A stretch of 64,000 nt of DNA from Escherichia coli. Lineage in GTDB: Bacteria; Pseudomonadota; Gammaproteobacteria; Enterobacterales; Enterobacteriaceae. The DNA lies in the NCBI GenBank assembly GCA_002099625.1, contig GCA_002099625.1_4857.1; one strand, 5' to 3'. The notes under the pieces are model-generated. The model saw only the letters and a program-made list of their open reading frames with translations. It was not told the DNA's origin and did no database searches. A program made the translations under genes and the position numbers. Of the stretch, positions 2,753 to 63,169 are shown in pieces. Position 1 is the first letter of the stretch. Every line of letters begins with the position of its first letter.

Positions 2753-2805
2753 GTTAAAACTCCTTAAGATAATGGTCGATTAGATAAGAGTTAATTGTTA
2801 ACTCT

Positions 2806-2829
2806 CACCTAAGTAATATATATCTGAAA
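2806..2829 (-). promoter_or_regulatory. class A phage promoter-like motif
   Basis: Minus-strand TTTCAGATATATATTACTTAGGTG; near-identical copies at 24757, 54641 and 63146, each about 50 nt upstream of a minus gene start. Confidence 0.6.
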
Positions 2830-2923: not shown

Positions 2924-3352
2924 CTAGTTGATGTGGAGTAGAGTGTCCTTCAACGCCTTCTGCTTTTCGTACGACTGACGACACAAGGAAGTCAGCGTCG
3001 AATACGCCGTGCCGGTACGCACCGGTAATTCGCCACCCGCTTCGGTGGGTTCTGTACGAACAAAAGACCCTTCTTCAAACGGCGGCGCTGCGTGTGGGAA
3101 GTTCTTTTTCATGTATCGCTTATACCAGCCGGCCACAACACGGATAACTTTTGGCATCTGAGATCGTCGGTCACGTACTTTCTTCCCGTGCATCTGATTC
3201 ATCTCGGAAGACATGCATAGCGAGGTGTACTGACTGAATCCGTCACTGACCCACTTACCGTCCTGGACCAGTAATTTCTTACCAACTGCTACAGCGATTC
3301 TCGGAGAGAAAATGACCGCACCATCTTTACGTTTCTTAGGCTTAAGCATCAT
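2924..3352 (-). CDS. hypothetical protein
   Basis: 142-aa ORF. Confidence 0.5.
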   Translation of the reverse strand: MMLKPKKRKDGAVIFSPRIAVAVGKKLLVQDGKWVSDGFSQYTSLCMSSEMNQMHGKKVRDRRSQMPKVIRVVAGWYKRYMKKNFPHAAPPFEEGSFVRTEPTEAGGELPVRTGTAYSTLTSLCRQSYEKQKALKDTLLHIN

Positions 3353-4145
3353 TATCGTCCTTGTATAGGGAGTCGTAAGGGCTGTTAGTGTTCATGTTAA
3401 ATTCTTGTTCTACTTCAGGATGTTGTGAAAGGGAATCCAGAAAGATCGGTTGATATCCACCCTCTGTACGTTTCTTTATCATTTCAAGGAACGACTTTCC
3501 ATCAGGAACATCAGGTGTTGATACTAACACCGTGTCAGAGACTGTCGGTAAACGCGTGCAGCCTTCAGTGTTCAGCTGTAGTACCGCGTCTGGTGCGATG
3601 TGTCTGATGTTAGGAAACTTCAACGCGATCTCTTCCATCTTCGCTTTCAATGCATCACCGTTTAGCAGCGGTACAGTCGGCGTCATATAAGCGAACTCAA
3701 CATCTCGATCGGCCACATAATCGCGTAAGTGTTTTCGGGCTGCTACTGTAGCAGAAACTTGCTCTTTATTAGCGTTTATGCCGATGCCATTAAAACGTTT
3801 TAGTTTGTCTAAGAAAACGTTAATGTTTTCCTTCGGCATAGGGCGTGGGAACTTACGCAGAAAATAAAGTTGTTCGCGGCCAGGCACCCAGCTGAGCACC
3901 CAGCACGCTTTTAGTGTACGGAAGATATCACGATAGGGTTTCTTCTCTTGAAAGAAATCCCCTTTTAACTGGCAACGGTCTTCAACCATTGCCTGGAGTT
4001 GGGTGGCTACGTTGGCCATTGCCGACCAGGTGATAAGACGACTACGGTGTTTACCCACGTAGAGACGTCCACCTGTAATACGACGAGACTGTGGATGTAC
4101 TATTTTGACAAACTGTAATCTTTTCTGCTTGCGTGGTTTTAACAT
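3342..4145 (-). CDS. hypothetical protein
   Basis: 267-aa ORF; SD AAGGAG upstream. Confidence 0.55.
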   Translation of the reverse strand: MLKPRKQKRLQFVKIVHPQSRRITGGRLYVGKHRSRLITWSAMANVATQLQAMVEDRCQLKGDFFQEKKPYRDIFRTLKACWVLSWVPGREQLYFLRKFPRPMPKENINVFLDKLKRFNGIGINANKEQVSATVAARKHLRDYVADRDVEFAYMTPTVPLLNGDALKAKMEEIALKFPNIRHIAPDAVLQLNTEGCTRLPTVSDTVLVSTPDVPDGKSFLEMIKKRTEGGYQPIFLDSLSQHPEVEQEFNMNTNSPYDSLYKDDNDA

Positions 4146-7750: not shown

Positions 7751-10700
7751 TTAGTTAGTTTCGAGTGGATCGTCTGGAATAGTAAACGTTATATCAAGTG
7801 AAGCTGTTGTGTGGTCGGGGATTGCCAAGTCGTGATAGATATCATGCCCTGCACCATGTTCTTTATAGAGGAGATACAAGCCGATTGCACGCATCGCTTC
7901 CCCGGTATAAAACCCAAAGGCTTGACCGTTATCCGTAGTAGGGTTTGCCCACGGAGACCAGGCACCGTTAATGGCTTTTCCTGGAATGTCTGTGACGGTG
8001 AAGTTGTCACCCATCTCTTTCATCCCCATATCCATAATACGGCTCAACCCTTCCACTGTACAGCCAGCCATTGCTGCATAAGCGCTGCCTGCTATCCAGA
8101 GCGCACACATATGTGCTGTGAAATCGTTCTCTACCCACACCGGTTTATTTGGTGCCGTAGGGAATTCATTCGGCGTGTGGTTGTCAAAGCGGTCTAAGAA
8201 CCCTACGAGCCACTTAGCCCAATTTTCAACGTACACTACTAGCTCAGGTGGAACCTCTTTACCACGCACAACTAATTCGTACCAACAACGCGCAGCGGCG
8301 TTATACGCGCGCGGCTGATAACCTGCCCACGGATGTCCATCTCCCCAATGGAACGTTGTCCACGTATCTGCCGGGCCGTAAGAGTAATTATCCCAACGGT
8401 TCCAAATATACGCCGCACAACCTGGACCTAACTCACCTATCTGCTTTTGGTAGTTGGTTTGTGAATCGTGCATAAACCGAATCTGATTTAAGAGCCAGTC
8501 TTTGTAGCGATCATCGGTGTGTATGGTGTACATAAACGGATACTGATAGCCAGGATACGGCATCCCGTGCCATGCACCTAGCTGATACGTTCCTTCCGAA
8601 TAGATGTTCGAGAACGGTATCGTTCCTGGGCAATACGCGAGCGAGTCAAGACGGTAATCTTTTATCGTACAATCGCCCACTTTACCCGTAAATGCAGAAC
8701 CTCCCCGAATTACAATACGGAACGTTAATGTCCAGCCATCGTCTGCATTAAACAGTGGCGGAACATCGTTTACGCAATACCAGCTAAAGTGCGCATTCTC
8801 CACAGCCGAATCGGGCAGTATGGTTACCTGATCGATAGTTGTATAGTTTGGCGCAGCCGGTTTTGGTTCGACGTCGGTATCGTGGTCAGGTTGATAGCCC
8901 GAGAGTGTTGCGTCTTCAGGGCGAATAATAACCTGTTTCCATTCCCCGTTAGTCGCGGGCAACATCCACCACCAACGCCACTTGTCGGTATCTTCGAAAC
9001 GGAAGTTGAAATCAGCATCAGCACGATAGACAATTGACTGTGGGGGTGCAACTCCGGCATCGGTTAACCAGAAGCCGATAATGAAACCCGCATCGTCGTT
9101 CGGGAATAACGCTTCTACGATTGTGCCTGAACGACCATCGTAAATGTTGTTCTCAAACTTCTCCTGCCACGTACACCCACCGTAGTCCGAACATGCTCGC
9201 GCATCGGCAATGATGTAATCTTCGCCGTTGGCCGGATTGGTCATTCTGGCCAGATGCCCTAAATCGATGTCATGCTGTTCTACTTCCATCGATGTTGATC
9301 CCGGAAGCGTACAGCCGTACCAGTTTACTTCTTCAGTATCCGCTTTGACGGGGTTAATATCCACCATCACTTTACACGCAAGTGCATCACCGTTGTCGCA
9401 AACACCGCCATACGTCACACGTAACTTCGATTGACTGTTTATCCTGAAACGCACGGCTTGCTGTTCCATAAAGTTCTGCACAGCTTTCTCAGAACGGAAC
9501 ACAATATCACCATTTTCATCACGACTGTAAGCGACCTCAACAGTGCTGGGGTATTTATAGTCGTACGAGATACCGTCTGTAAATGGTGTTTCGGCTAGCT
9601 TAGAACGTCGGAAAAACTTGTCCTTCGCATCGATATACGTGTATTCGTGCGCTGTATAGAACACAGAGTCTAGTGCGGCTTTATAGCGCGCTTCACCTGT
9701 GATACGCCAGAGCAGATAGCAGGCATCAATAAACCACACTTCCGCATCTGCCGCGTTACCCATCTGGTTAACAGACCCTTTTAACGGGGTATGAACCGGA
9801 CGGTTGTGCCACGGCTCATTGCGGTCAAACAAATAACCGCCGTGCTCTACAGGTACCTGGGAAGCGTAGTTAATCAAATATACACCGTTAATACTGGTGT
9901 CCTTTAATTGTACGGTTCCTTTCTGGGCATCAGGTAAACCGGATTCGATGACATCGCCGTCTTGAACCTTCTCACCCGTCCACACAACAAACCAGTCAGG
10001 TTCGTACCGCGGACCTTTCGAGGTAGAACCGCCCCACATTGGTGTATATCCGGTTGGGTCGTTTAACATCCTGTTCCAGTCCACCCATGCTTTTACATCG
10101 TAAGGTTTCTCTGGATTGGTGATTAAGTAATCAGGGACTTTAGACCAGTCAATTAACCCGTTTTCCGATTCCTTAATTTTCTGTACGTCGGCATTAACCG
10201 CACCCCAGGTAGGATGGCCACGGTGCGCAGAAAAGAAATTGTTCAGATACTCACCAAAGAATGGTGCGCCTTGGGGTATCTGGCAACGCCCGTTCGTAAA
10301 CGTTACCGGTACACACTTGTAACCACCGTGGGTTGGCTCGGTCGGATGCACTGGATAGTCTGCCAGCACCGGTTCTTTACCGTTAACTAGCCAGTTACAA
10401 ATCCATCGTTGCGGTGAATCGGGAATGGCCTGACCTGCGTAATAGTAGGTAGCGTACGCTTCCCATGCATGAATCGCCGCATCTAACCACATCTGGTTTT
10501 TGGTAGCAATGTACATGTGACAGTAGCCAATAATCAGCAACGATTGACCTTCTGTGGTGGCGTCACCATTAGGTTGATACACTGCCATGGAGTCAGCAAT
10601 GAAATGCCGGTTATTAGATAGCACCCCTTCTGGGTTAATCAGATAATGGTCATTGTGGGCGTCGTTAGTTAAGCCGGTGTTTCGACGAACAAAGTCCTGA

Positions 10701-24339: not shown

Positions 24340-24705
24340 CTACATCACTGCAGAAGGTTTACGTGCCATGACTTTAAGTCCCGTATCTCGTACCCGGATA
24401 GGACAATTATTCATGTAATCAATGCAGGATTCAATTTTGAAGCTGTGTCGACATTTACCGTTGATGGAACGGTAGACGATTTCGTAATTCAGGCGCAGTG
24501 TATCGGCAACCCGCATTAACGTTTCAATAGTCACGGCCTTCTCACGTTCATTTTTAATCGCAGATATTTGTGACGGCGAGCAACCTACTAATAACGCAAC
24601 GTCTTTCTGCGTAACGTCCTTCGCAGTAACACGTGTAATAATGTAAGAAAGACGAACCAAAAACGCTTTCTTTGCCAACACAACTGTTTGATGTTTAAAA
24701 CGCAT
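24340..24705 (-). CDS. HTH (XRE/Cro-like) transcriptional regulator
   Basis: Helix-turn-helix signature TQKDVALLVGCSPSQISAIKN; first gene after class A promoter. Confidence 0.55.
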   Translation of the reverse strand: MRFKHQTVVLAKKAFLVRLSYIITRVTAKDVTQKDVALLVGCSPSQISAIKNEREKAVTIETLMRVADTLRLNYEIVYRSINGKCRHSFKIESCIDYMNNCPIRVRDTGLKVMARKPSAVM

Positions 24706-24756
24706 TAGAATACTCCTTTAGATTAATAGTCGATTAGAGAGTTTAGTAGTAACTCT

Positions 24757-24780
24757 CACCTAGGTAATATATATCTGAAA
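24757..24780 (-). promoter_or_regulatory. class A phage promoter-like motif
   Basis: Minus-strand TTTCAGATATATATTACCTAGGTG, followed by hairpin GAGAGTT/AACTCTC and leader TAATCGAC. Confidence 0.6.
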
Positions 24781-24821
24781 TTTAGTGGACTGGAAGCAAA
24801 AAAGCATAAGACTGTTCTGAT

Positions 24822-38755: not shown

Positions 38756-41500
38756 ATGGAAGATATTAGTAAATTAACGGGCGACCCCGCGGTAGCTGCC
38801 ATACTGCGTAAGTCCACGAGCCCGTCGGCTCAGCAGCAACGCGGTAAGCGTGAAGATGGCGGCGTTACACCAACCCGTACAGAACTCACGGGCATTGCGA
38901 GTAGCCGCATTCGCACCGTTAAAAATGCCGAACGTATCTTTGATGCGCTCCCTGAGTTAGAGGTCATTGTTACCATCGCGACCTCCTCACTCCTGTCCAC
39001 AAAAGATTTGATTAACACCACGCTGATTTACGACAACGTGGCTGATATCCCGATCGACCTGCGTCAACAGTTGTTGGAACCTGTGCGTGAATTCCATGAC
39101 CACACGCGCCAGTTACCCAACAAACTGTATCAGTGGATTTACGATGCACTGAAATCCAAAGGCGCGAGCCCGGTGTTGCTGATTTCAGATACCGGATTCG
39201 ATGAACTCTTCGGCTTAAAGCCGTCTGTTGCAACCGAATCGTTGCGCCGTAGCCAATCTGACTTCTTTGAACGTCAGTTGGGTATCCTGGGCAAGATTGG
39301 CGGTGAAAACAAACCGAAGGTTGGTGTAGAAAGTATTCTGGGCCGTGCACGTGGCGCTGACAAGCCCACCAAGCCACAAACCATTAAACTTAACTTTGCA
39401 GCAGCCCCTAACAGTCCGTTTAAAGCAGACGGTATGTTAGCTTCCCTGGATATCGTTATCACCGACAACCCGCGTATTACCCTGCTACCAGAGGCTTATC
39501 GCCGTGTGGCACAGGAGAATGCTCGCACCGGCCTGTTCGGTCAGTTAGAGCAGTACGCATATGAACAACCTTCTACGCCGACAGGTGCGTCAGAGTATAA
39601 CGCTGACCAGTTCACAGACAGTGAACAAGAGAAGGCAAAACTCGGTTTAATCAACATCGGCGACCTCAACGAAGCGTACCAGAAAACGCCTGAGCAAAAG
39701 CTTTACGGCGAAGTACCGAAGATGAGTTTCTCCGATGCCAACAAAATCGAATACACGGAACGATTACTGCCAGCAGAGTCCACACTCCCGCTCGTTATCG
39801 GCGACGATGTTCGTAACCCCATAGGTTATCTGGCCATCGTTGACGAAATGGGTAACTTCATTAACTCGCGCTCCACACTTTACGGTGATGCGAACTTCAT
39901 GAACTACCTGAACAACGACGGTATGGTGGATTCAACAATCAACCGTGCGAATCTGGGGATGGGCAACACAACCCGAATCACACCAGACATTGCTAACCGC
40001 TTAACAGCGCGTTATGGTGAAATTGCTGAAGACCAGCTAACCAAAGCTCTGGGTGAGGCGTTGGGTGGTGCTGAGATTAGCATGACAGTAACCGAAACGT
40101 TCAGCCGTATCATGCTGGCGCGCCATCTGGCAAAACGTCATACGCAGGTTATCTATATTCCTGCGGAAAACCTTTGCTATTTTGCCACGGACTTTGATGA
40201 AGATGGTATCGGTGTATCTATTACCGAACGCTCGTTCGTTATCTCTACTGTCCGTATGGCGCTGTTGTTCGCTACCATGAACTCTGCGGTGTTGAACTCT
40301 GCACGTCACATGCAGTACGACATTGAGTTGGCACCAGATGACATGAACGGTCAGAAAACAATTGACCAGCTGAAAACAGACATCATGAACTCCTATAACC
40401 GTCGTCAACCGATGTGGGGGGACATGAACGACACCTGGGCAATGACGACAAACGCAGGTATTGCGTTTAACGTTATTGGTAACGACTACTACGGTAGTAC
40501 CAAAGTGTCTGTGTCGGACACTACGCCGGATTATAAATACCCGGATAAGGATTTCGACGAAGGTCTGTTACGACGTACTTGTCACATCGCAGGTGTTGAC
40601 CCTGACCTGGTAATGACCCCCGAGAACATCGAGTTTGCTTCACAGATCTTCTCTAAATCGTTACTGGTCACCCAGCAGGTTGTTAAGAAGCAAGAGATTC
40701 TCTCTAAGCCACTGACACGTTACGTAGTTAATGGGATGTTGGCCTCTCCGTCGTTGCAATCAGCGATGATTAAAATCATTGCAGAGTACATCAATGCTAA
40801 CGGCAATGGGATGACTACTGACCAGATTACGAAAAAGGTCTCTGAGTATCTGGCTGCGTTTATCAACGGTATGAAAGTAACCTTACCACCGCCAGACACC
40901 TCTGCAGCAGCTTCGCAGATGGAGCTGTTCGATAAACGTACGGAGTTCTTTGAGAAGCTGGCTGATCTGGTTGTAACGGATGACATTGCTGCGCAACTCC
41001 AGCAAGAAGGTATCTCGATGGACCCGAACGATCTGAAGACGATGATCAAATCCTTCTATACGCGCAACTGGCTGCGTAAACAAGGTATTGAAACCGACTT
41101 CTTCGATCTGGTTTACGACGATGATTCTCGTCAGGACAACATCACCATGATGACTGATGAAGCGATGGCTGCTTCGAAAACGCTGATTCAATTGGCGAAA
41201 CGTTTCACCGGGCGACTGGAAACGTTAGCGAAGAATGCCGACCTTGATCCTAACGATGCTTCCGGCGGATTCGGTGGTGGTTTTGATGCGGGCGGTGACA
41301 CCGGCGGTGGTGATGGGGATCTCGGCGGTGGGGGTGACGATGATTTAGACCTCGATCTCGATACGGATAACGGCACCGGTGGTGATAGTACAGAGGAAAC
41401 TACTGAGTCGACCGAAACCACGGAAACAACTACCGAGGGAACGGAAGGCACAGAAGGCGGTGAAGGAACTACCGACGACAACCCAGACAACGTCCTCTAA
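38756..41500 (+). CDS. large virion-associated protein, portal-like candidate
   Basis: Continuous 914-aa plus-strand ORF while minus frames are fragmented; C-terminal Gly/Asp/Thr/Glu low-complexity tail; portal assignment is speculative. Confidence 0.55.
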   Translation: MEDISKLTGDPAVAAILRKSTSPSAQQQRGKREDGGVTPTRTELTGIASSRIRTVKNAERIFDALPELEVIVTIATSSLLSTKDLINTTLIYDNVADIPIDLRQQLLEPVREFHDHTRQLPNKLYQWIYDALKSKGASPVLLISDTGFDELFGLKPSVATESLRRSQSDFFERQLGILGKIGGENKPKVGVESILGRARGADKPTKPQTIKLNFAAAPNSPFKADGMLASLDIVITDNPRITLLPEAYRRVAQENARTGLFGQLEQYAYEQPSTPTGASEYNADQFTDSEQEKAKLGLINIGDLNEAYQKTPEQKLYGEVPKMSFSDANKIEYTERLLPAESTLPLVIGDDVRNPIGYLAIVDEMGNFINSRSTLYGDANFMNYLNNDGMVDSTINRANLGMGNTTRITPDIANRLTARYGEIAEDQLTKALGEALGGAEISMTVTETFSRIMLARHLAKRHTQVIYIPAENLCYFATDFDEDGIGVSITERSFVISTVRMALLFATMNSAVLNSARHMQYDIELAPDDMNGQKTIDQLKTDIMNSYNRRQPMWGDMNDTWAMTTNAGIAFNVIGNDYYGSTKVSVSDTTPDYKYPDKDFDEGLLRRTCHIAGVDPDLVMTPENIEFASQIFSKSLLVTQQVVKKQEILSKPLTRYVVNGMLASPSLQSAMIKIIAEYINANGNGMTTDQITKKVSEYLAAFINGMKVTLPPPDTSAAASQMELFDKRTEFFEKLADLVVTDDIAAQLQQEGISMDPNDLKTMIKSFYTRNWLRKQGIETDFFDLVYDDDSRQDNITMMTDEAMAASKTLIQLAKRFTGRLETLAKNADLDPNDASGGFGGGFDAGGDTGGGDGDLGGGGDDDLDLDLDTDNGTGGDSTEETTESTETTETTTEGTEGTEGGEGTTDDNPDNVL

Positions 41501-53599: not shown

Positions 53600-54016
53600 T
53601 TAGTCCTTAAGAGAGTTAATAAAGTCATCTAAACTAATATCACGGAATGGGAAGTAAACACCTTCAAGCGGAATCGTGTAGTGTTCACTAATGGCACGTT
53701 GCCAATCCAGAACAGTTGCAGGGTAGTTCACAACCTCAAAGTTAGGATGCGTGATTGGCGGAATTGCGTTGTAAACATAGCCGTTAATATTTTTCGATGG
53801 GAACGCTGCACGGAACTTCGGCTCCATGTAGAACATTTCTTCTTTTACTTCCTGGCCTTCCCAGAAACGATAGCCACCCTTACCGTCAGGAATATAAATC
53901 GCCTTGTCACGGGGTATAGGGGAATCCTTGGATAGCGGAACAAATCGCCCGTACTGGTCAAGAACCATCCAGTCAGTGTCATTCTTTAAATACTTTTGGA
54001 GCTTCTCATTAATCAT
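53600..54016 (-). CDS. hypothetical protein
   Basis: Start probably ATG 54016 or 54022; the ORF track N-terminal extension runs through the terminator. Confidence 0.5.
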   Translation of the reverse strand: MINEKLQKYLKNDTDWMVLDQYGRFVPLSKDSPIPRDKAIYIPDGKGGYRFWEGQEVKEEMFYMEPKFRAAFPSKNINGYVYNAIPPITHPNFEVVNYPATVLDWQRAISEHYTIPLEGVYFPFRDISLDDFINSLKD

Positions 54017-54032
54017 TTTCATGTTCCTTAGG

Positions 54033-54062
54033 CAAAAAATAATACCACCCGTAGGTGGTATT
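54033..54062 (-). terminator. intrinsic terminator
   Basis: Stem accacc/ggtggt with cgta loop; A-run on plus strand. Confidence 0.6.
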
Positions 54063-54074
54063 AAATTATCTATA

Positions 54075-54263
54075 CTACTTCTTCCCGAGTTCCCCACGGA
54101 ACTTCGCCAGCTCTTCTTTCCAGTCCGGCTTCGGTAGTGCGCTTTTCGGCCCCACGATAAACGTACGTTCTGAGGTTTGCGGATTCACCTCTACTGTTTC
54201 GTTATCTTCCACTTCGCGAAGCACGATTCCGTTTTTACCATCGTAATTAACTAAAACGCCCAT
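54075..54263 (-). CDS. small hypothetical protein
   Basis: 62-aa ORF. Confidence 0.45.
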   Translation of the reverse strand: MGVLVNYDGKNGIVLREVEDNETVEVNPQTSERTFIVGPKSALPKPDWKEELAKFRGELGKK

Positions 54264-54445
54264 TAGTAAATCTCCTGCTGCATTGGAAACACATTACCTG
54301 TCGGTGAGACGAGTAAGACTTGCGCGGTAACGTGAACAATTTCTTCTTCGTCCTGATGACGAACACCGTTAGTGAGATTATCCCACTCACGTTTAACACG
54401 AGGGTGAGATAAGAACTCGGCAAACTGCGTATCAGAAAAGTCCAT
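54263..54445 (-). CDS. small hypothetical protein
   Basis: Start ATG 54445 overlaps stop of upstream micro-ORF (TAATG coupling). Confidence 0.45.
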   Translation of the reverse strand: MDFSDTQFAEFLSHPRVKREWDNLTNGVRHQDEEEIVHVTAQVLLVSPTGNVFPMQQEIY

Positions 54446-54588
54446 TAGCCGCGACCTGTGCACATGGCAACAGAGTTACCGTTATCGATGCATTTGTTGT
54501 AATCTTGAGTTACAGTGATAGACAGTACCGCGAAAGCAACAACAGCAACGATTGCGAAGATGGCACGTTTATGGTTACGAGTTAACAT
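54445..54588 (-). CDS. small membrane protein (47 aa)
   Basis: MLTRNHKRAIFAIVAVVAFAVLSITV...; single TM; first ORF after class A promoter; not in ORF track (under 60 aa). Confidence 0.45.
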   Translation of the reverse strand: MLTRNHKRAIFAIVAVVAFAVLSITVTQDYNKCIDNGNSVAMCTGRG

Positions 54589-54640
54589 GGTAATACTCCT
54601 TTAGCTTAATAGTCGATTGAGTTGATAGATTGTCTTCTAT

Positions 54641-54664
54641 CACCTAGGTAATATATATCTGAAA
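54641..54664 (-). promoter_or_regulatory. class A phage promoter-like motif
   Basis: Minus-strand TTTCAGATATATATTACCTAGGTG followed by hairpin GATAG/CTATC and leader. Confidence 0.6.
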
Positions 54665-54689
54665 TTATTTTTATTCAGAGTACACCCTC

Positions 54690-54795
54690 TATAACGCTCT
54701 CAAACGCGTTTTGAGAGCTTTTATCACTTTAGAGGGTCGTTCTACCGTTAGAGTGGCTTTAGAAGGTTGTGTGTGCGTTTAGAGGGCTAAAATAA
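54690..54795. repeat. intergenic palindrome plus four TTAGARKG direct repeats
   Basis: Inverted repeat gctctcaaa-cgcgt-tttgagagc at 54696..54718; repeats tttagaggg, gttagagtg, tttagaagg and tttagaggg follow over about 60 bp. Confidence 0.5.
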
Positions 54796-54824
54796 AGAGA
54801 CCTGGTCTCACAAGGAGACCAGGC
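54786..54824 (-). terminator. intrinsic terminator
   Basis: Stem cctggtctc/gagaccagg; A-run on plus strand upstream. Confidence 0.65.
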
Positions 54825-54830
54825 ACACTT

Positions 54831-55628
54831 TTACATCAAATCCAGGCTCTGAGAGACCGCAACTTCCGGTTCACTGATGCCGCTGGTCACTGACAATGTA
54901 AAGCGACGATCGTTAATCACTTCAACTGCCTCGCTCGCACGCAGTGAATACTTATCGGCGATTGGCAGTACACTGTTATCGTTCTGTGGCGGCAGAATCT
55001 GTGCCGGGAACGGAATGTACGAGTTGAAAGTGATATACGGACCGACTTGCATCATCGGGAACACTTCGTTCACGTTATTCGACATCCCTTCATCCGAAGA
55101 GATAACGGAGTGACGCAGACAGGCACGCAAGCCAACGGTGTACTCCGGATCGCGCGATTCGCCGATCAGTGCGAAACGGAACACGTTGAAATCGTAGTCG
55201 TCTGCAGCGAAGTGTTCTGGCAGGATACGCTGTACGTATTCAGGGTAAGTGGTCACGTCACCCGGAATAACATTCACGGCGAGTTTCTGTGCCAGGAAAT
55301 ACGCATTCGCGAAACCGTACTGCCCCGCCAGCGCAGCTGATATCGGTGCAGTGGTTACGCAGTGCAGGAACAAGTGATAACCCAGCCCGCCTTTATCTTC
55401 GATTGCCAGGTCCTTCTTACTCTGCACACCGTCAGCAGTATAAATAACTGCCACTGTTTTATCCAACGTTGATGCCATGACAAAATCCAACTGCACCTCA
55501 CCGCTTTGCGGCAGTACCTTAACCAGGCGATCCCAGAGCTTGGTCGGTTTGGTGAAGTTAGCGGCTTCGTACGCATCAATGTCGAGAACAGTTTGGCCGG
55601 TCATGCGAAAGGTGTGAATCGCTTTCAT
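54831..55628 (-). CDS. hypothetical protein, possible virion protein
   Basis: 265-aa ORF. Confidence 0.55.
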   Translation of the reverse strand: MKAIHTFRMTGQTVLDIDAYEAANFTKPTKLWDRLVKVLPQSGEVQLDFVMASTLDKTVAVIYTADGVQSKKDLAIEDKGGLGYHLFLHCVTTAPISAALAGQYGFANAYFLAQKLAVNVIPGDVTTYPEYVQRILPEHFAADDYDFNVFRFALIGESRDPEYTVGLRACLRHSVISSDEGMSNNVNEVFPMMQVGPYITFNSYIPFPAQILPPQNDNSVLPIADKYSLRASEAVEVINDRRFTLSVTSGISEPEVAVSQSLDLM

Positions 55629-55671
55629 TGCAATATTTTCCTTAAGGTTACTTACGGGTCATACTAGATGA

Positions 55672-56985
55672 CTAAGCTGTAAATTTTTCATCTTTGAGCC
55701 AAAGACTCAGTTGTGATTGGGTGTTATAGCGTCCTGATGCCATCGTTTGACCGTCGACAGCAGACTGGAACACTTCACCCACCAACGTGCCGTAGCGGGT
55801 ATAGACCCCATACTCGTTGGCAAAAACGTATTTTACTGGCATACCGGGATATAGGATGCCGTGCGTTGATCGGTTCCAGGTTGTTTGCACAATCGTACCC
55901 AGACCCATCTCCAGTTTAGACCGCTGTGGTTTATCGGTATCGCTAAAGTGCTTATCAGGATCGATTGGTGCGTTAACCACACCACCTGGATACGCAGCAG
56001 GGTCGGCCTGTGCCACAAATTTATCAGGTGTGGTCATACTGATGTCGCCAGGCGTAAATGAACTACTACGCCCATCCAACACACGTACAGACCCTACCCG
56101 GTAACCCGTACCCTGGTTAAGCGCGGCCTGGTCACGGTATTCCAAACTACTGGTGTCGCCGCCACAAATCAGATAGATAACATTACCCGCGATATCGGTG
56201 GTGCGGTCAATGTGAGCAGCCTGTTCACGAGGCAAGTTATAAATGACCAGTTTAGGCTTCGTTGTGTTATTAAACTTCAACGAGTCCCAAGGTCGATACA
56301 GATACCATCGTTGTAGGTATTGGAAGACCCCAATACCTTTGCTGTAAACACCGTAATGGTTCTGCAGATAATCAAACACGCTTAAGAAGTCTTCGGAGTC
56401 TGGTATAACGATGTCCCGATATGCCTGCTGTTCTTCTTCATCGTATTCAATCCCTTTCAACTGCCCCTCTGCAGCCACCCCTTCCGGCAACGTATCCGCC
56501 AATATCGAGCGAGCCACTGTTAACCCATCTGTTTCGTGGTAGATGCCGCCCACTTGACGATTACGCAGGAACCACATCGACTCATCCATCAGCTCCAATG
56601 TTACCAATGCGATAGATTTCTCATCAGACTGACTCAAGAACATCGTCGGTGATTCCGCGTTGTGGTCGCGGTTATTTATCACGATGCCGCGGTAGTTAAA
56701 GACCCCTGCGATTTTCTGTCCACGACGCAGTAACAGCTTTACCTTCAAATCCCCTTCTGCGGACGATGTGATCATTCGCATGTGGCTGTAGGGGATAGCC
56801 AAGGTGAGATGTGTCAATAAACAGATATCACGCGTAAAGTGACCGGTGTGAATGATAGACAGCATCTTCAACACCGTCACTGGGGCACCGTGCACCGTGA
56901 GGAATATCCCGTAGTCGATAGCCGGTAACCCCCGAGCATTAGCGATGTGACCGTTCGCCATCTGTTGTAACCGACCAAACGACAT
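55672..56985 (-). CDS. hypothetical protein, possible virion protein
   Basis: 437-aa ORF. Confidence 0.55.
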   Translation of the reverse strand: MSFGRLQQMANGHIANARGLPAIDYGIFLTVHGAPVTVLKMLSIIHTGHFTRDICLLTHLTLAIPYSHMRMITSSAEGDLKVKLLLRRGQKIAGVFNYRGIVINNRDHNAESPTMFLSQSDEKSIALVTLELMDESMWFLRNRQVGGIYHETDGLTVARSILADTLPEGVAAEGQLKGIEYDEEEQQAYRDIVIPDSEDFLSVFDYLQNHYGVYSKGIGVFQYLQRWYLYRPWDSLKFNNTTKPKLVIYNLPREQAAHIDRTTDIAGNVIYLICGGDTSSLEYRDQAALNQGTGYRVGSVRVLDGRSSSFTPGDISMTTPDKFVAQADPAAYPGGVVNAPIDPDKHFSDTDKPQRSKLEMGLGTIVQTTWNRSTHGILYPGMPVKYVFANEYGVYTRYGTLVGEVFQSAVDGQTMASGRYNTQSQLSLWLKDEKFTA

Positions 56986-62280: not shown

Positions 62281-62317
62281 TATAAATACTCCTTACGATT
62301 AATGGTCGATTACATAC

Positions 62318-62346
62318 GGTTTCAGGCTAACGTAATATTTACGCTG
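62318..62346 (-). promoter_or_regulatory. class A-like promoter variant
   Basis: Minus-strand CAGCGTAAATATTACGTTAGCCTGAAACC; overlaps the 3' end of 62339..63100. Confidence 0.4.
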
Positions 62347-63100: not shown

Positions 63101-63145
63101 ATTCCTTAAGTAATGGTCAGTTAGTAAAGCAAATCATTGTTTGCT

Positions 63146-63169
63146 CACCTAGGTAATATATATCTGAAA
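63146..63169 (-). promoter_or_regulatory. class A phage promoter-like motif
   Basis: Minus-strand TTTCAGATATATATTACCTAGGTG followed by hairpin GAGCAAA/TTTGCT. Confidence 0.6.

Follow-up and report, generated by a model that had tools for sequence, protein, structure and literature searches.

A phased array of 10-bp repeats upstream of a predicted early promoter in SPN3US-like jumbo phage DNA recurs in unrelated enteric mobile elements

We analysed an intergenic repeat region in a 64,000-nucleotide stretch of DNA from the Escherichia coli assembly GCA_002099625.1 (contig GCA_002099625.1_4857.1; the whole stretch is called the window hereafter), in which an array of 10-bp units lies upstream of a predicted early promoter. 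Salmonella phage SPN3US and some 30 closely related phages (Seoulvirus) match positions 53600-56000 at 97-99% identity, and judged by its sequence the window is SPN3US-like jumbo phage DNA. These relatives are 240-kb jumbo phages with multisubunit RNA polymerases (RNAPs) of their own, and they belong to the nucleus-forming group. According to the list of open reading frames (ORFs), all genes around 54690-54795 are on the minus strand. In that direction the order is the stop codon of a homologue of SPN3US ACQ60_gp201 (gp201), a terminator, four repeats, a palindrome, an AT-rich stretch, a promoter motif termed class A, a leader, and the ATG at 54588 of a homologue of ACQ60_gp200 (gp200). The spacer that contains the array is 242 nt long and non-coding. 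The gp201 homologue is the final gene in a run of virion structural genes (SPN3US annotation) and its protein is 100% identical throughout the SPN3US clade; the gp200 homologue opens a run of small genes. No Pfam family was matched by either protein. The features of the locus are listed below, with the means by which each was located.

54831..55628, minus strand: upstream gene, homologue of SPN3US ACQ60_gp201, 265 aa (ORF list and SPN3US annotation)
54787..54824, minus strand: intrinsic terminator of the upstream operon, GCCTGGTCTC-cttgt-GAGACCAGGT then CTCTTTATTTT (terminator scan)
54729-36, 54748-55, 54759-66 and 54779-86, plus strand: four TTAGARKG copies (pattern match)
54682..54740, no strand assigned: extended hairpin or cruciform-capable segment, with outer stem ACCCTCTA/TAGAGGGT around the palindrome (inverted repeat and fold)
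54696..54718, no strand assigned: palindrome GCTCTCAAA-cgcgt-TTTGAGAGC with an ACGCGT centre (inverted-repeat search)
54685..54714, minus strand: conserved core, three 10-bp-phased units TCAAAACGCG / TTTGAGAGCG / TTATAGAGGG (phased-array scan and ten-phage alignment)
54640..54664, minus strand: class A promoter motif TTTCAGATATATATTACCTAGGTGA, 25 nt (repeated motif in the window and SPN3US)
54596..54641, minus strand: class A leader, with the hairpin GATAGA-agacaa-TCTATC at 54641-54624, the box AATCGACTATTA at 54618-54607 and the Shine-Dalgarno (SD) sequence AGGAG at 54600-54596 (four units compared, inverted repeat)
54445..54588, minus strand: first gene of the early operon, homologue of SPN3US ACQ60_gp200, 47 aa, hydrophobic (ORF list, SPN3US annotation)

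The homologous interval was compared in relatives of falling similarity, and ten phages of the genera Seoulvirus, Erskinevirus, Wellingtonvirus and Machinavirus were aligned. Only three blocks were conserved in this alignment, namely the terminator hairpin (kept in 10/10 relatives), the array and the promoter, whereas the 65 nt from the terminator to the array were not conserved. Read in the gene sense, the conserved array block is AAAGCGC TTAGAAnGCG TTTGAGAGCG TTTTAgGGG. In the window, the array units lie at approximately -43 to -72 from the predicted early transcript start, and the array is made up of one palindrome arm (54696..54704, unit 2, gene-sense TTTGAGAGC) and an inverted TAGAGGG (unit 3). 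The consensus of the array family, in fixed order, is TTAGAAnGCG, TTWYAGAGCG, TTTTAGAGGG, then TAT. Units 2 and 3 of the window array (TTTGAGAGCG, TTATAGAGGG) fit this consensus, whereas unit 1 is altered to TCAAAACGCG and the tail is TGT instead of TAT. Scored against three units of TTWNAGAGSG, the window array reached 24/27, and units 2 and 3 together 18/18; shuffled versions of the window contained none. Other members of the family are the arrays of Caitlin (GTAGAGAGCG / TTATAGAGCG / TTTTAGAGGG) and Asesino (TTAGAACGCG / TTACAGCGCG / TTTGAGAGCG / TTTTTAGGGG). Unit 3 and the promoter core are separated by 41 bp in five phages that represent two genera, despite diverged intervening sequence, and by 32-33 bp in three other phages.

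The initial annotation of this segment had described the palindrome, with its 9-bp arms and ACGCGT centre, and four copies of TTAGA(G/A)(G/T)G next to the class A promoter, and all of these are present. It had overlooked that the four repeats run antisense to the genes, that a further copy, TAGAGGG, lies inverted on the minus strand at 54691..54685, and that the palindrome arms are themselves copies of the repeat motif, TT[G/T]AGAG[C/G], shifted by one base (TTTGAGAGC). The four copies, which start 19, 11 and 20 nt apart, occupy the region about 87-144 bp ahead of the predicted transcript start. The window contains 10 matches to TTAGARKG (5.9 expected), so that the motif is not enriched globally, but 4/10 fall within 58 bp; among 28 matches in the 240-kb SPN3US genome, 54729-54786 is the sole cluster of four. 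Because the TTAGARKG pattern had been fitted to the copies, a motif-free test was added, which counted loci where an 8-mer recurred three or more times on its own strand within 62 nt, one mismatch being allowed per copy. Two loci were found in the window (0.05 in shuffles) and two in SPN3US (0.25 in shuffles). This test superseded a looser one allowing up to two mismatches, which was uninformative (83 loci compared with 54 in shuffles). The four-copy cluster is thus far beyond chance. Tandem Repeats Finder, at a minimum score of 30, reported no tandem repeat at the locus. The other motif-free cluster in the window, at 41272-41330 (8-mer CGGTGGTG), is probably a coding repeat; the other one in SPN3US (NC_027402), at about 143975, consists of at least four copies of AGAACAGC within a long, 540-nt intergenic region (143745-144285).

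The palindrome can be extended to 12-nt arms (54693-54704 / 54710-54721) that are 92% complementary, and the DNA fold of 54682-54740 gave a 57-nt extended hairpin of -14.2 kcal/mol (z = -5.7). Comparison with the family consensus indicates that the second arm (54710..54718) arose by substitutions that turned the unit 1 sequence TTAGAAnGCG into TCAAAACGCG. A 30-nt pattern is present in two copies (CTTTAGAGGGTCGT / CTTTAGAAGGTTGT). Read on the plus strand, the palindrome forms a 9-bp stem with four GC pairs followed by TTTTATCACT, which agrees with the consensus for an intrinsic terminator; it is not at the 3' end of any plus-strand transcription unit within about 2.6 kb, the nearest plus-strand gene upstream, a DnaB-like helicase gene, being that far off. 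The sense strand of the spacer (54790-54705, minus) contains 31% C and 14% G, and for excess of C over G it ranks at the 99.4th percentile of the window; C-rich, G-poor composition such as that of 54705-54790 on the minus strand is typical of Rho-loading sites.

In relatives that keep the flanking genes, the terminator and the promoter, the four repeats to which the initial annotation had drawn attention are lost or scrambled, and it is the phased array that is conserved instead; for the four repeats this is the outcome that the initial annotation had named as refuting its reading. The repeats are absent or unrecognisable in pEa_SNUABM_29 (pEa29) and SPAsTU, both of the same genus and with a 79% identical gp201 protein, as well as in Erskinevirus, Wellingtonvirus and Machinavirus; outside the SPN3US clade only single antisense copies occur, in pEa29 (CCCTATAAAC) and Machina (TCTCTAAAC). 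On this distribution the four repeats are young, lineage-specific additions, in the orientation opposite to that of the array. Among six genomes of the SPN3US clade, the cores of copies 1, 3 and 4, the arm 54696..54704 and the inverted copy are all invariant, and changes are confined to copy 2, the spacers and one position in one palindrome arm. This last change, T to C, is found in SPFM2 and SPFM16, with no compensating change in either.

The class A motif occurs four times in the window (2805-2829, 24756-24782, 54640-54664 and 63145-63169) and about eight times in SPN3US, confirming the promoter that had been placed at 54641..54664 as a copy of a 25-nt repeated motif. Every copy is in the gene sense and stands in front of a small-gene operon, and all class A promoters have, as their conserved upstream part, the AT-rich stretch that here lies next to the array. 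In jumbo phages that encode their own RNAPs, AT-rich motifs centred near -10 are early promoters read by the virion RNAP (PMC7598289). The class A motif fits the definition given there, which calls for a highly conserved AT-rich motif of about 10 nt repeated on the coding strand in front of presumed early operons, and is taken here to be an early promoter for the virion RNAP. No transcript or promoter mapping for SPN3US was found in the literature, and the start site near 54640-54645 is therefore a prediction. A scan of 54300-55100 for sigma-70 promoters found none, and no acceptable -35/-10 pair was seen by eye within the array on either strand.

The terminator, earlier placed at 54786..54824, was recovered by the scan as an intrinsic terminator on the minus strand, with a 10-bp stem (54824-54800) and a T-run. 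At the other three class A promoters of the window an intrinsic terminator lies only about 25 nt upstream, and terminator-promoter-leader cassettes thus precede small genes in this phage; at the 54640 promoter about 115 extra nucleotides separate terminator and promoter, and these constitute the segment under study. All class A promoters are followed by a hairpin that begins in the last bases of the motif, then by a conserved box, AATCGACYATTA, and then by an SD sequence. The leader box also occurs at 24709-24735 and 62285-62311; at the latter site, box and SD are accompanied only by a degenerate promoter core, GTAATATTTA (62332-62341). Two clade members differ at the promoter. In SPFM2 the promoter core is duplicated in tandem (27 nt; 850-880 of the extracted segment), and SPFM16 has a variant promoter, TAGATAGATATTATCTTAGGGAGAG, and another gene in place of the usual promoter and the small genes downstream of it (960-1030 of the extract), with the breakpoint at the promoter's AT-rich edge.

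Variation in the region is greatest between gp201 and gp200, where 0-3 extra genes are present depending on the genus. Some intervals encode a 131-137-aa protein that corresponds to an N-terminal Ia-like domain of DNA ligase (Pfam Nlig-Ia), referred to here as gene X. It is present in pEa29, SPAsTU and pEa6, where the array lies directly 5' of it, and in pEa29 and SPAsTU unit 3 of the array (TCTGGAGGCT) doubles as the SD sequence of gene X. Upstream of the array, the block ATCATTTATCG has opposite orientations in pEa29/SPAsTU and in Machina. A block ATCATTTATCGTTTAT..AATAAAAA upstream of the array is antisense in pEa29 and SPAsTU, and sense in Machina, ChrisDB, Caitlin and pEa6. This block, and likewise the ATTTATCG block found upstream of many arrays, resembles in either orientation the high-affinity motif of H-NS, TCGATAAATT; we regard this as a lead only.

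A scan of the whole SPN3US genome for three phased TTWNAGAGSG units returned exactly two arrays (0.1 per genome in shuffles), 72 kb apart. The second, at NC_027402 137549-137578 and hence outside the window, reads TTAGAGAGCG / TTACAGAGCG / TTTTAGAGGG and is preceded by the block ATTTATCATCT. This locus 2 (137515-137625) sits between a gene downstream of the tail assembly chaperone gene and a bidirectional terminator; the array is inside a 3' untranslated region (UTR), just before the terminator. Asesino has locus 2 in a syntenic position, and so has phiEaH2, where it is more degenerate.

Arrays of the same type were found well beyond the jumbo phages. A query of 111 nt around SPN3US locus 2 matched 283 phage records, most of them over the 28-nt array only, at about 93% identity and in unannotated DNA. 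The left terminal repeat of the T5-like phage saus132 contains CGCG TTAGAATGCG TTACAGAGCG TTTTAGAGCT followed by paired DnaA-type boxes (1198-1320 of the extract), and T5-like contigs from IMG/VR carry two arrays each, every one directly adjoining paired DnaA-type boxes. In FelixO1 the array is TTATAGAGCG TTATAGAGCG TTTTAGTGGT, and in the Seunavirus SalP219 it is GCGC TTAGAAAGCG TTTTAGAGCG TTTTAGAGGG TATTACAT. With a 42-nt consensus as the query, 1,186 of 5,426 complete E. coli genomes were matched, 231 of them with at least 80% query coverage. These matches fell at 1,305 plasmid and 971 chromosomal places, and none of the 30 matches listed was annotated. The same query matched 1,074 plasmids in PLSDB, almost all of those listed coming from Enterobacterales genera. 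IncX1 plasmids have two arrays each, between the replication gene and stbDE-type toxin-antitoxin genes; there the array lies beyond DnaA boxes and a putative ColE1-like priming-site sequence. In small plasmids the array is between the replication origin and the mob gene, and it is also present in a 2.9-kb plasmid annotated only with RepL and a MobV relaxase. A satellite island beside tRNA-Thr and its IMG/VR relatives encode two integrases, a replication-type HTH protein, a major capsid protein and a Dit-like tail protein; these capsid-forming islands have convergent arrays, one at each end of the main operon (e.g. 3164-3190 and 10550-10590, or 4001-4045, in the extracts), and a satellite array lies upstream of the replication module.

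In almost all of these elements unit 1 is TTAGAAnGCG, and most share the tail GGGTAT(T/A). Since the units are non-equivalent and their order is fixed, the array looks less like a simple repeat than like a single, defined nucleoprotein site. It was non-coding or unannotated in all instances examined and in the gene sense in nearly all contexts, and no common neighbouring gene was found around the arrays of 11 loci. Rfam 15 gave no match on the window (E threshold 10; the best hit had E > 1, far below gathering scores) and none on the arrays of five other loci (threshold 1). In the searchable literature, array sub-strings on both strands matched only unrelated eukaryotic primers, and no description of the array was found. 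When one genome of each species was scanned for the exact pattern, 8 matches were obtained, several from non-enteric metagenome-assembled genomes or Sporosarcina; as matches with two identical units may be chance tandem duplications, no conclusion on spread beyond the Enterobacterales is drawn from them. The exact scan of IMG/VR gave 11 matches, to essentially the same phage groups and satellites.

The explanation that we favour, tentatively and at somewhat less than an even chance, is that the array is a stretch of curved DNA ahead of the early promoter that serves as a platform for protein binding in helical phase, and that the bound protein probably comes from the host. The earlier proposal of a repeated, protein-bound cis-element beside a promoter is in this general form the best-supported reading, whereas the specific regulator, origin and packaging roles attached to it were unsupported. 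The T-tracts recur with a 10-bp period, as in phased A/T tracts, together with high predicted curvature: in a wedge-model calculation with assumed parameters, the curvature of the window array exceeded the window's 99th percentile and that of the array at SPN3US locus 2 equalled the maximum of the whole 64-kb window. The exact 10-bp period with one T-tract per unit would place the AGAGCG cores on one face of the helix. Several copies of a single sequence-specific protein could then bind side by side on the same face of an intrinsically curved DNA. A host-encoded binder is the most likely, because the carriers of the array, including the 2.9-kb RepL/relaxase plasmid, have no genes in common. 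In the SPN3US clade, the number of sites would have been raised to seven in two orientations: the substitutions in unit 1 would have mirrored unit 2 and so created the palindrome, and four oppositely oriented copies, with spacings near multiples of 10 bp, would fill the 95 nt back to the terminator. The enlarged wrapped or looped complex would bend or loop the DNA between about -43 and -145, and it could set the activity of the early promoter or insulate this promoter from the late structural operon, whose end is 100 nt upstream. The sequence itself shows the anatomy of the locus, the clustering, the 10-bp phasing, the conservation between genera, the second copy in the genome, the presence in unrelated mobile elements and a predicted curvature; protein binding, host encoding of the binder and the direction of a transcriptional effect are inferred. 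A wider proposal is possible but rather doubtful: the 30-35-bp array may be a previously undescribed cis-element by which diverse enteric mobile elements engage one and the same host protein, a proposal that would cover jumbo, T5-like, FelixO1-like and rV5-like phages, IncX1 and small mobilisable plasmids, and capsid-forming satellites.

Several observations weigh against the platform model. The Derbicusvirus phages (Phobos, CR5 and Derbicus) lack the entire spacer and have the terminator joined directly to the promoter, and the other three class A promoters of the window have no array; since these do without it, the array is dispensable for promoter function as such. Locus 2 is followed by a terminator and not by a promoter, so that an upstream promoter element cannot be the whole story, and its array has drifted in phiEaH2 (TTAGAACGCT / TCCTAGGCGC / TTGTAGGGGG). 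The palindrome is not kept up by compensating changes. The clade genomes are 96-99% identical, which makes the invariance of the extra copies statistically weak, and the 41-bp spacing to the promoter core may reflect either constraint or shared descent without insertions and deletions. The curvature estimate, moreover, depends on the wedge parameters that were assumed. Finally, the DNA of nucleus-forming phages would be accessible to most host DNA-binding proteins only very early in infection, being shielded from them once the first minutes have passed.

Repeat arrays in helical phase are known from the upstream regions of other promoters; notable here is an array type shared across unrelated enteric elements, of which no description was found in the searchable literature. 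Known examples include parC/ParR of plasmid R1, with 11-bp repeats on both sides of a promoter, the direct and inverted heptads bound by omega of pSM19035, and the helical-turn repeats of the P2 Cox boxes and the 186 Apl sites. The jumbo phage array resembles them in its short units of about one helical turn, in its combination of direct and inverted copies just upstream of a promoter and in the predicted bend. In the known systems, however, the binder is encoded beside the array and the motif is private to the element, whereas the jumbo phage array has no adjacent binder gene, consists of three non-equivalent units and extends over 35 bp that are shared by elements unrelated in gene content. 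Strong bacterial promoters have upstream curved DNA with phased A-tracts, and Fis sites in the case of rrn P1. The phased T-tracts at about -45 to -75, the high predicted curvature and the suspected involvement of a host architectural protein are reminiscent of such upstream DNA; on the other hand, the promoter is presumably read by the virion RNAP and not by host sigma-70, and AGAGCG is conserved, which curvature alone does not need.

The early promoters of the window also recall the promoter-early stem-loop (PeSL) cassettes of T4-type phages, in that they form modules of terminator, promoter, leader hairpin and small gene that flank hypervariable small genes; in PeSL the cassette is the promoter and hairpin itself, whereas the array is an extra at one of about eight such promoters. 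Like iterons, the repeats are clustered, occur in both orientations and lie near an AT-rich stretch, and the plasmid arrays are in the replication region. Unlike iterons, they form contiguous 10-bp units with no cognate initiator and no skew signal, and they are identical across pir-type, RepL and HTH_36 replicons. In T5-like phages the array (TTAGAATGCG / TTACAGAGCG / TTTTAGAGCT) is at the edge of the untranslated regions of the left terminal repeat, with the paired DnaA-type boxes directly after it. The jumbo phage locus differs in lacking DnaA boxes, and these jumbo phages are not known to inject their DNA in two steps. The section of Davison's account of T5 (10.1101/866236) considered here lists palindromes, inverted repeats and DnaA boxes without singling out a 10-bp array, and states that the non-coding repeats are better conserved than the surrounding genes and are candidates for the injection stop signal.

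A number of known sites were compared with the array by their consensus sequences and set aside. OmpR sites have GTTACA half-sites with a 10-bp period, and only unit 2 fits them, the invariant part of the array being AGAGCG. Sites of ArcA, PhoP and PmrA have an 11-bp period and a different core; those of CpxR, Fis, IHF, Lrp, MetJ and KorB, the DnaA box, the integron core site and Xer/cer did not fit by eye; and the R6K iteron has only TGAGAG in common with the array. On the reverse strand, CGCTCTnTAAC matches the E. coli boxA antitermination sequence at 10/11 positions but is antisense to the genes almost everywhere. The likeness of GTTTTAGAGCTAT, from the T5-like version, to a Streptococcus Cas9 repeat was judged coincidental, and the BF23 paper gives no nick consensus.

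Among the rival explanations, it is unlikely, though worth serious consideration, that the spacer is a neutral leftover, i.e. the old 5' flank of a lost gene X, in which slippage or duplication produced the extra copies and the palindrome and whose only effect is bent DNA. The array abuts the SD sequence and ATG of gene X in pEa29 and SPAsTU, unit 3 (TCTGGAGGCT) being that SD sequence, and the window sequence after unit 3 matches the gene X arrangement with everything from start to stop removed; moreover, the two-copy 30-nt pattern (CTTTAGAGGGTCGT / CTTTAGAAGGTTGT) suggests duplication, the four copies are missing outside the SPN3US clade and the Derbicusvirus phages manage without the spacer. 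This history accounts for the position of the array but not for its conservation elsewhere: the array is kept across four genera and at a second locus, its near-unchanged recurrence in unrelated elements is unexpected of neutral DNA, Tandem Repeats Finder detects no tandem duplication, and the extra copies share the array motif and retain roughly helical spacing. An element acting in RNA is less probable still, whether as a rut-like, Rho-loading back-up terminator, as the site of an RNA-binding protein or nuclease, or, in the case of the palindrome, as a plus-strand terminator against antisense transcription. The C-over-G excess of the sense spacer, the nearly constant gene-sense orientation of the arrays, the position of locus 2 in a 3' UTR before a terminator and of the array in the 5' leader of gene X in pEa29 and SPAsTU, and the terminator-like palindrome with TTTTATCACT would all suit such an element, and mRNA is exported from the phage nucleus and thus can be reached by host factors. 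Nevertheless, Rfam matches none of it, and its secondary structure is not conserved, the clade-specific palindrome being disrupted in SPFM2 and SPFM16 with no compensating change. A strong intrinsic terminator precedes the array at 54685..54714, and little RNA is therefore expected over it, the action of host Rho on phage polymerases is unproven, and a strict 10-nt period with T-tracts is a feature of the DNA helix rather than of RNA recognition.

An operator for a phage-encoded regulator, which would tune or shut off the early operon, is about as improbable as the RNA-level reading. The initial annotation had named the XRE-type HTH protein encoded at 24340..24705 as a candidate, and a palindrome with 9-12-bp arms beside a promoter would suit such a protein, as perhaps would the repeats; the HTH_3 protein is itself driven by another class A promoter and is found in every genus that has the array. 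As a general binder of the array this protein fails, because the identical array type is present in T5-like, FelixO1-like and Seunavirus phages, plasmids and satellites without it, whereas the protein occurs only in jumbo phages (Seoulvirus, Erskinevirus, Machinavirus, and Klebsiella and Aeromonas jumbo phages). The array consensus also stays constant while the protein falls to 35-40% identity. The palindrome is restricted to the SPN3US clade, whereas the protein spans Salmonella to Aeromonas jumbo phages at 26-98% identity; its centre (54707) is 43 bp upstream of the motif edge (54664) and about 65 bp from the predicted start, hence not over the promoter, and no such site is found at the other class A promoters. 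It is possible that the HTH protein binds the clade-specific palindrome. We give slightly less credence to a recombination or mobility module, that is, a junction for cassette exchange or a site like a transfer origin or multimer-resolution site that spreads horizontally. The hypervariable gp201-gp200 interval with its 0-3 extra genes, the promoter and gene swap in SPFM16 and promoter duplication in SPFM2, the opposite orientations of ATCATTTATCG in pEa29/SPAsTU and Machina, the position between replication origin and mob gene in small plasmids and that beyond the DnaA boxes and presumed ColE1-like priming site in IncX1 would agree with it, and near-identity over 35 bp of non-coding DNA in unrelated elements could mean horizontal spread. 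Yet neither a recombinase nor a relaxase is associated with the array in phages, the SPFM16 and SPFM2 breakpoints are at the promoter and not at the array, and neither target-site duplications nor terminal inverted repeats were seen. Very improbable, finally, are the replication and packaging roles suggested earlier. Repeats in both orientations beside an AT-rich stretch and a strong promoter could be iterons of an origin activated by that promoter, a DnaB-like helicase gene is about 2.6 kb away, and elsewhere the array is in replication-related non-coding DNA (the IncX1 rep region, the T5 repeats with DnaA boxes and the satellite replication module). However, the cumulative GC skew of SPN3US tracks gene orientation, rising steadily through 65 kb without an inflection there and with extrema at 0.8 kb and 202 kb, and the AT skew of the full genome is likewise free of any origin-like inflection; the AT-rich stretch is common to every class A promoter; each genome has two arrays separated by 72 kb; the units are of 8-10 bp and not 17-22-bp iterons; no initiator gene adjoins them; and no DnaA box was seen by eye in the spacer. 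For T5, origins are reported near the genome centre and not in the terminal repeat (10.1101/866236). A packaging signal is at odds with a terminase gene about 170 kb away (SPN3US coordinates) and would not suit the plasmids that carry the array.

Apart from the early-promoter motif, very little has been described of the regulatory DNA in nucleus-forming jumbo phages, and this locus provides a defined, conserved upstream element with which the tuning of early transcription can be studied. If the array is only bent DNA or a neutral hitch-hiker, the locus would be an ordinary intergenic repeat cluster. One short non-coding sequence is nevertheless common to jumbo, T5-like, FelixO1-like and Seunavirus phages, to more than 1,000 enterobacterial plasmids and to satellites, and such sharing is hard to explain unless these elements rely on the same host factor or on the same physical property of their DNA. 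If the proposal of a single host factor is true, many phages and plasmids that are otherwise unrelated would have that factor in common as a handle, or as a vulnerability.

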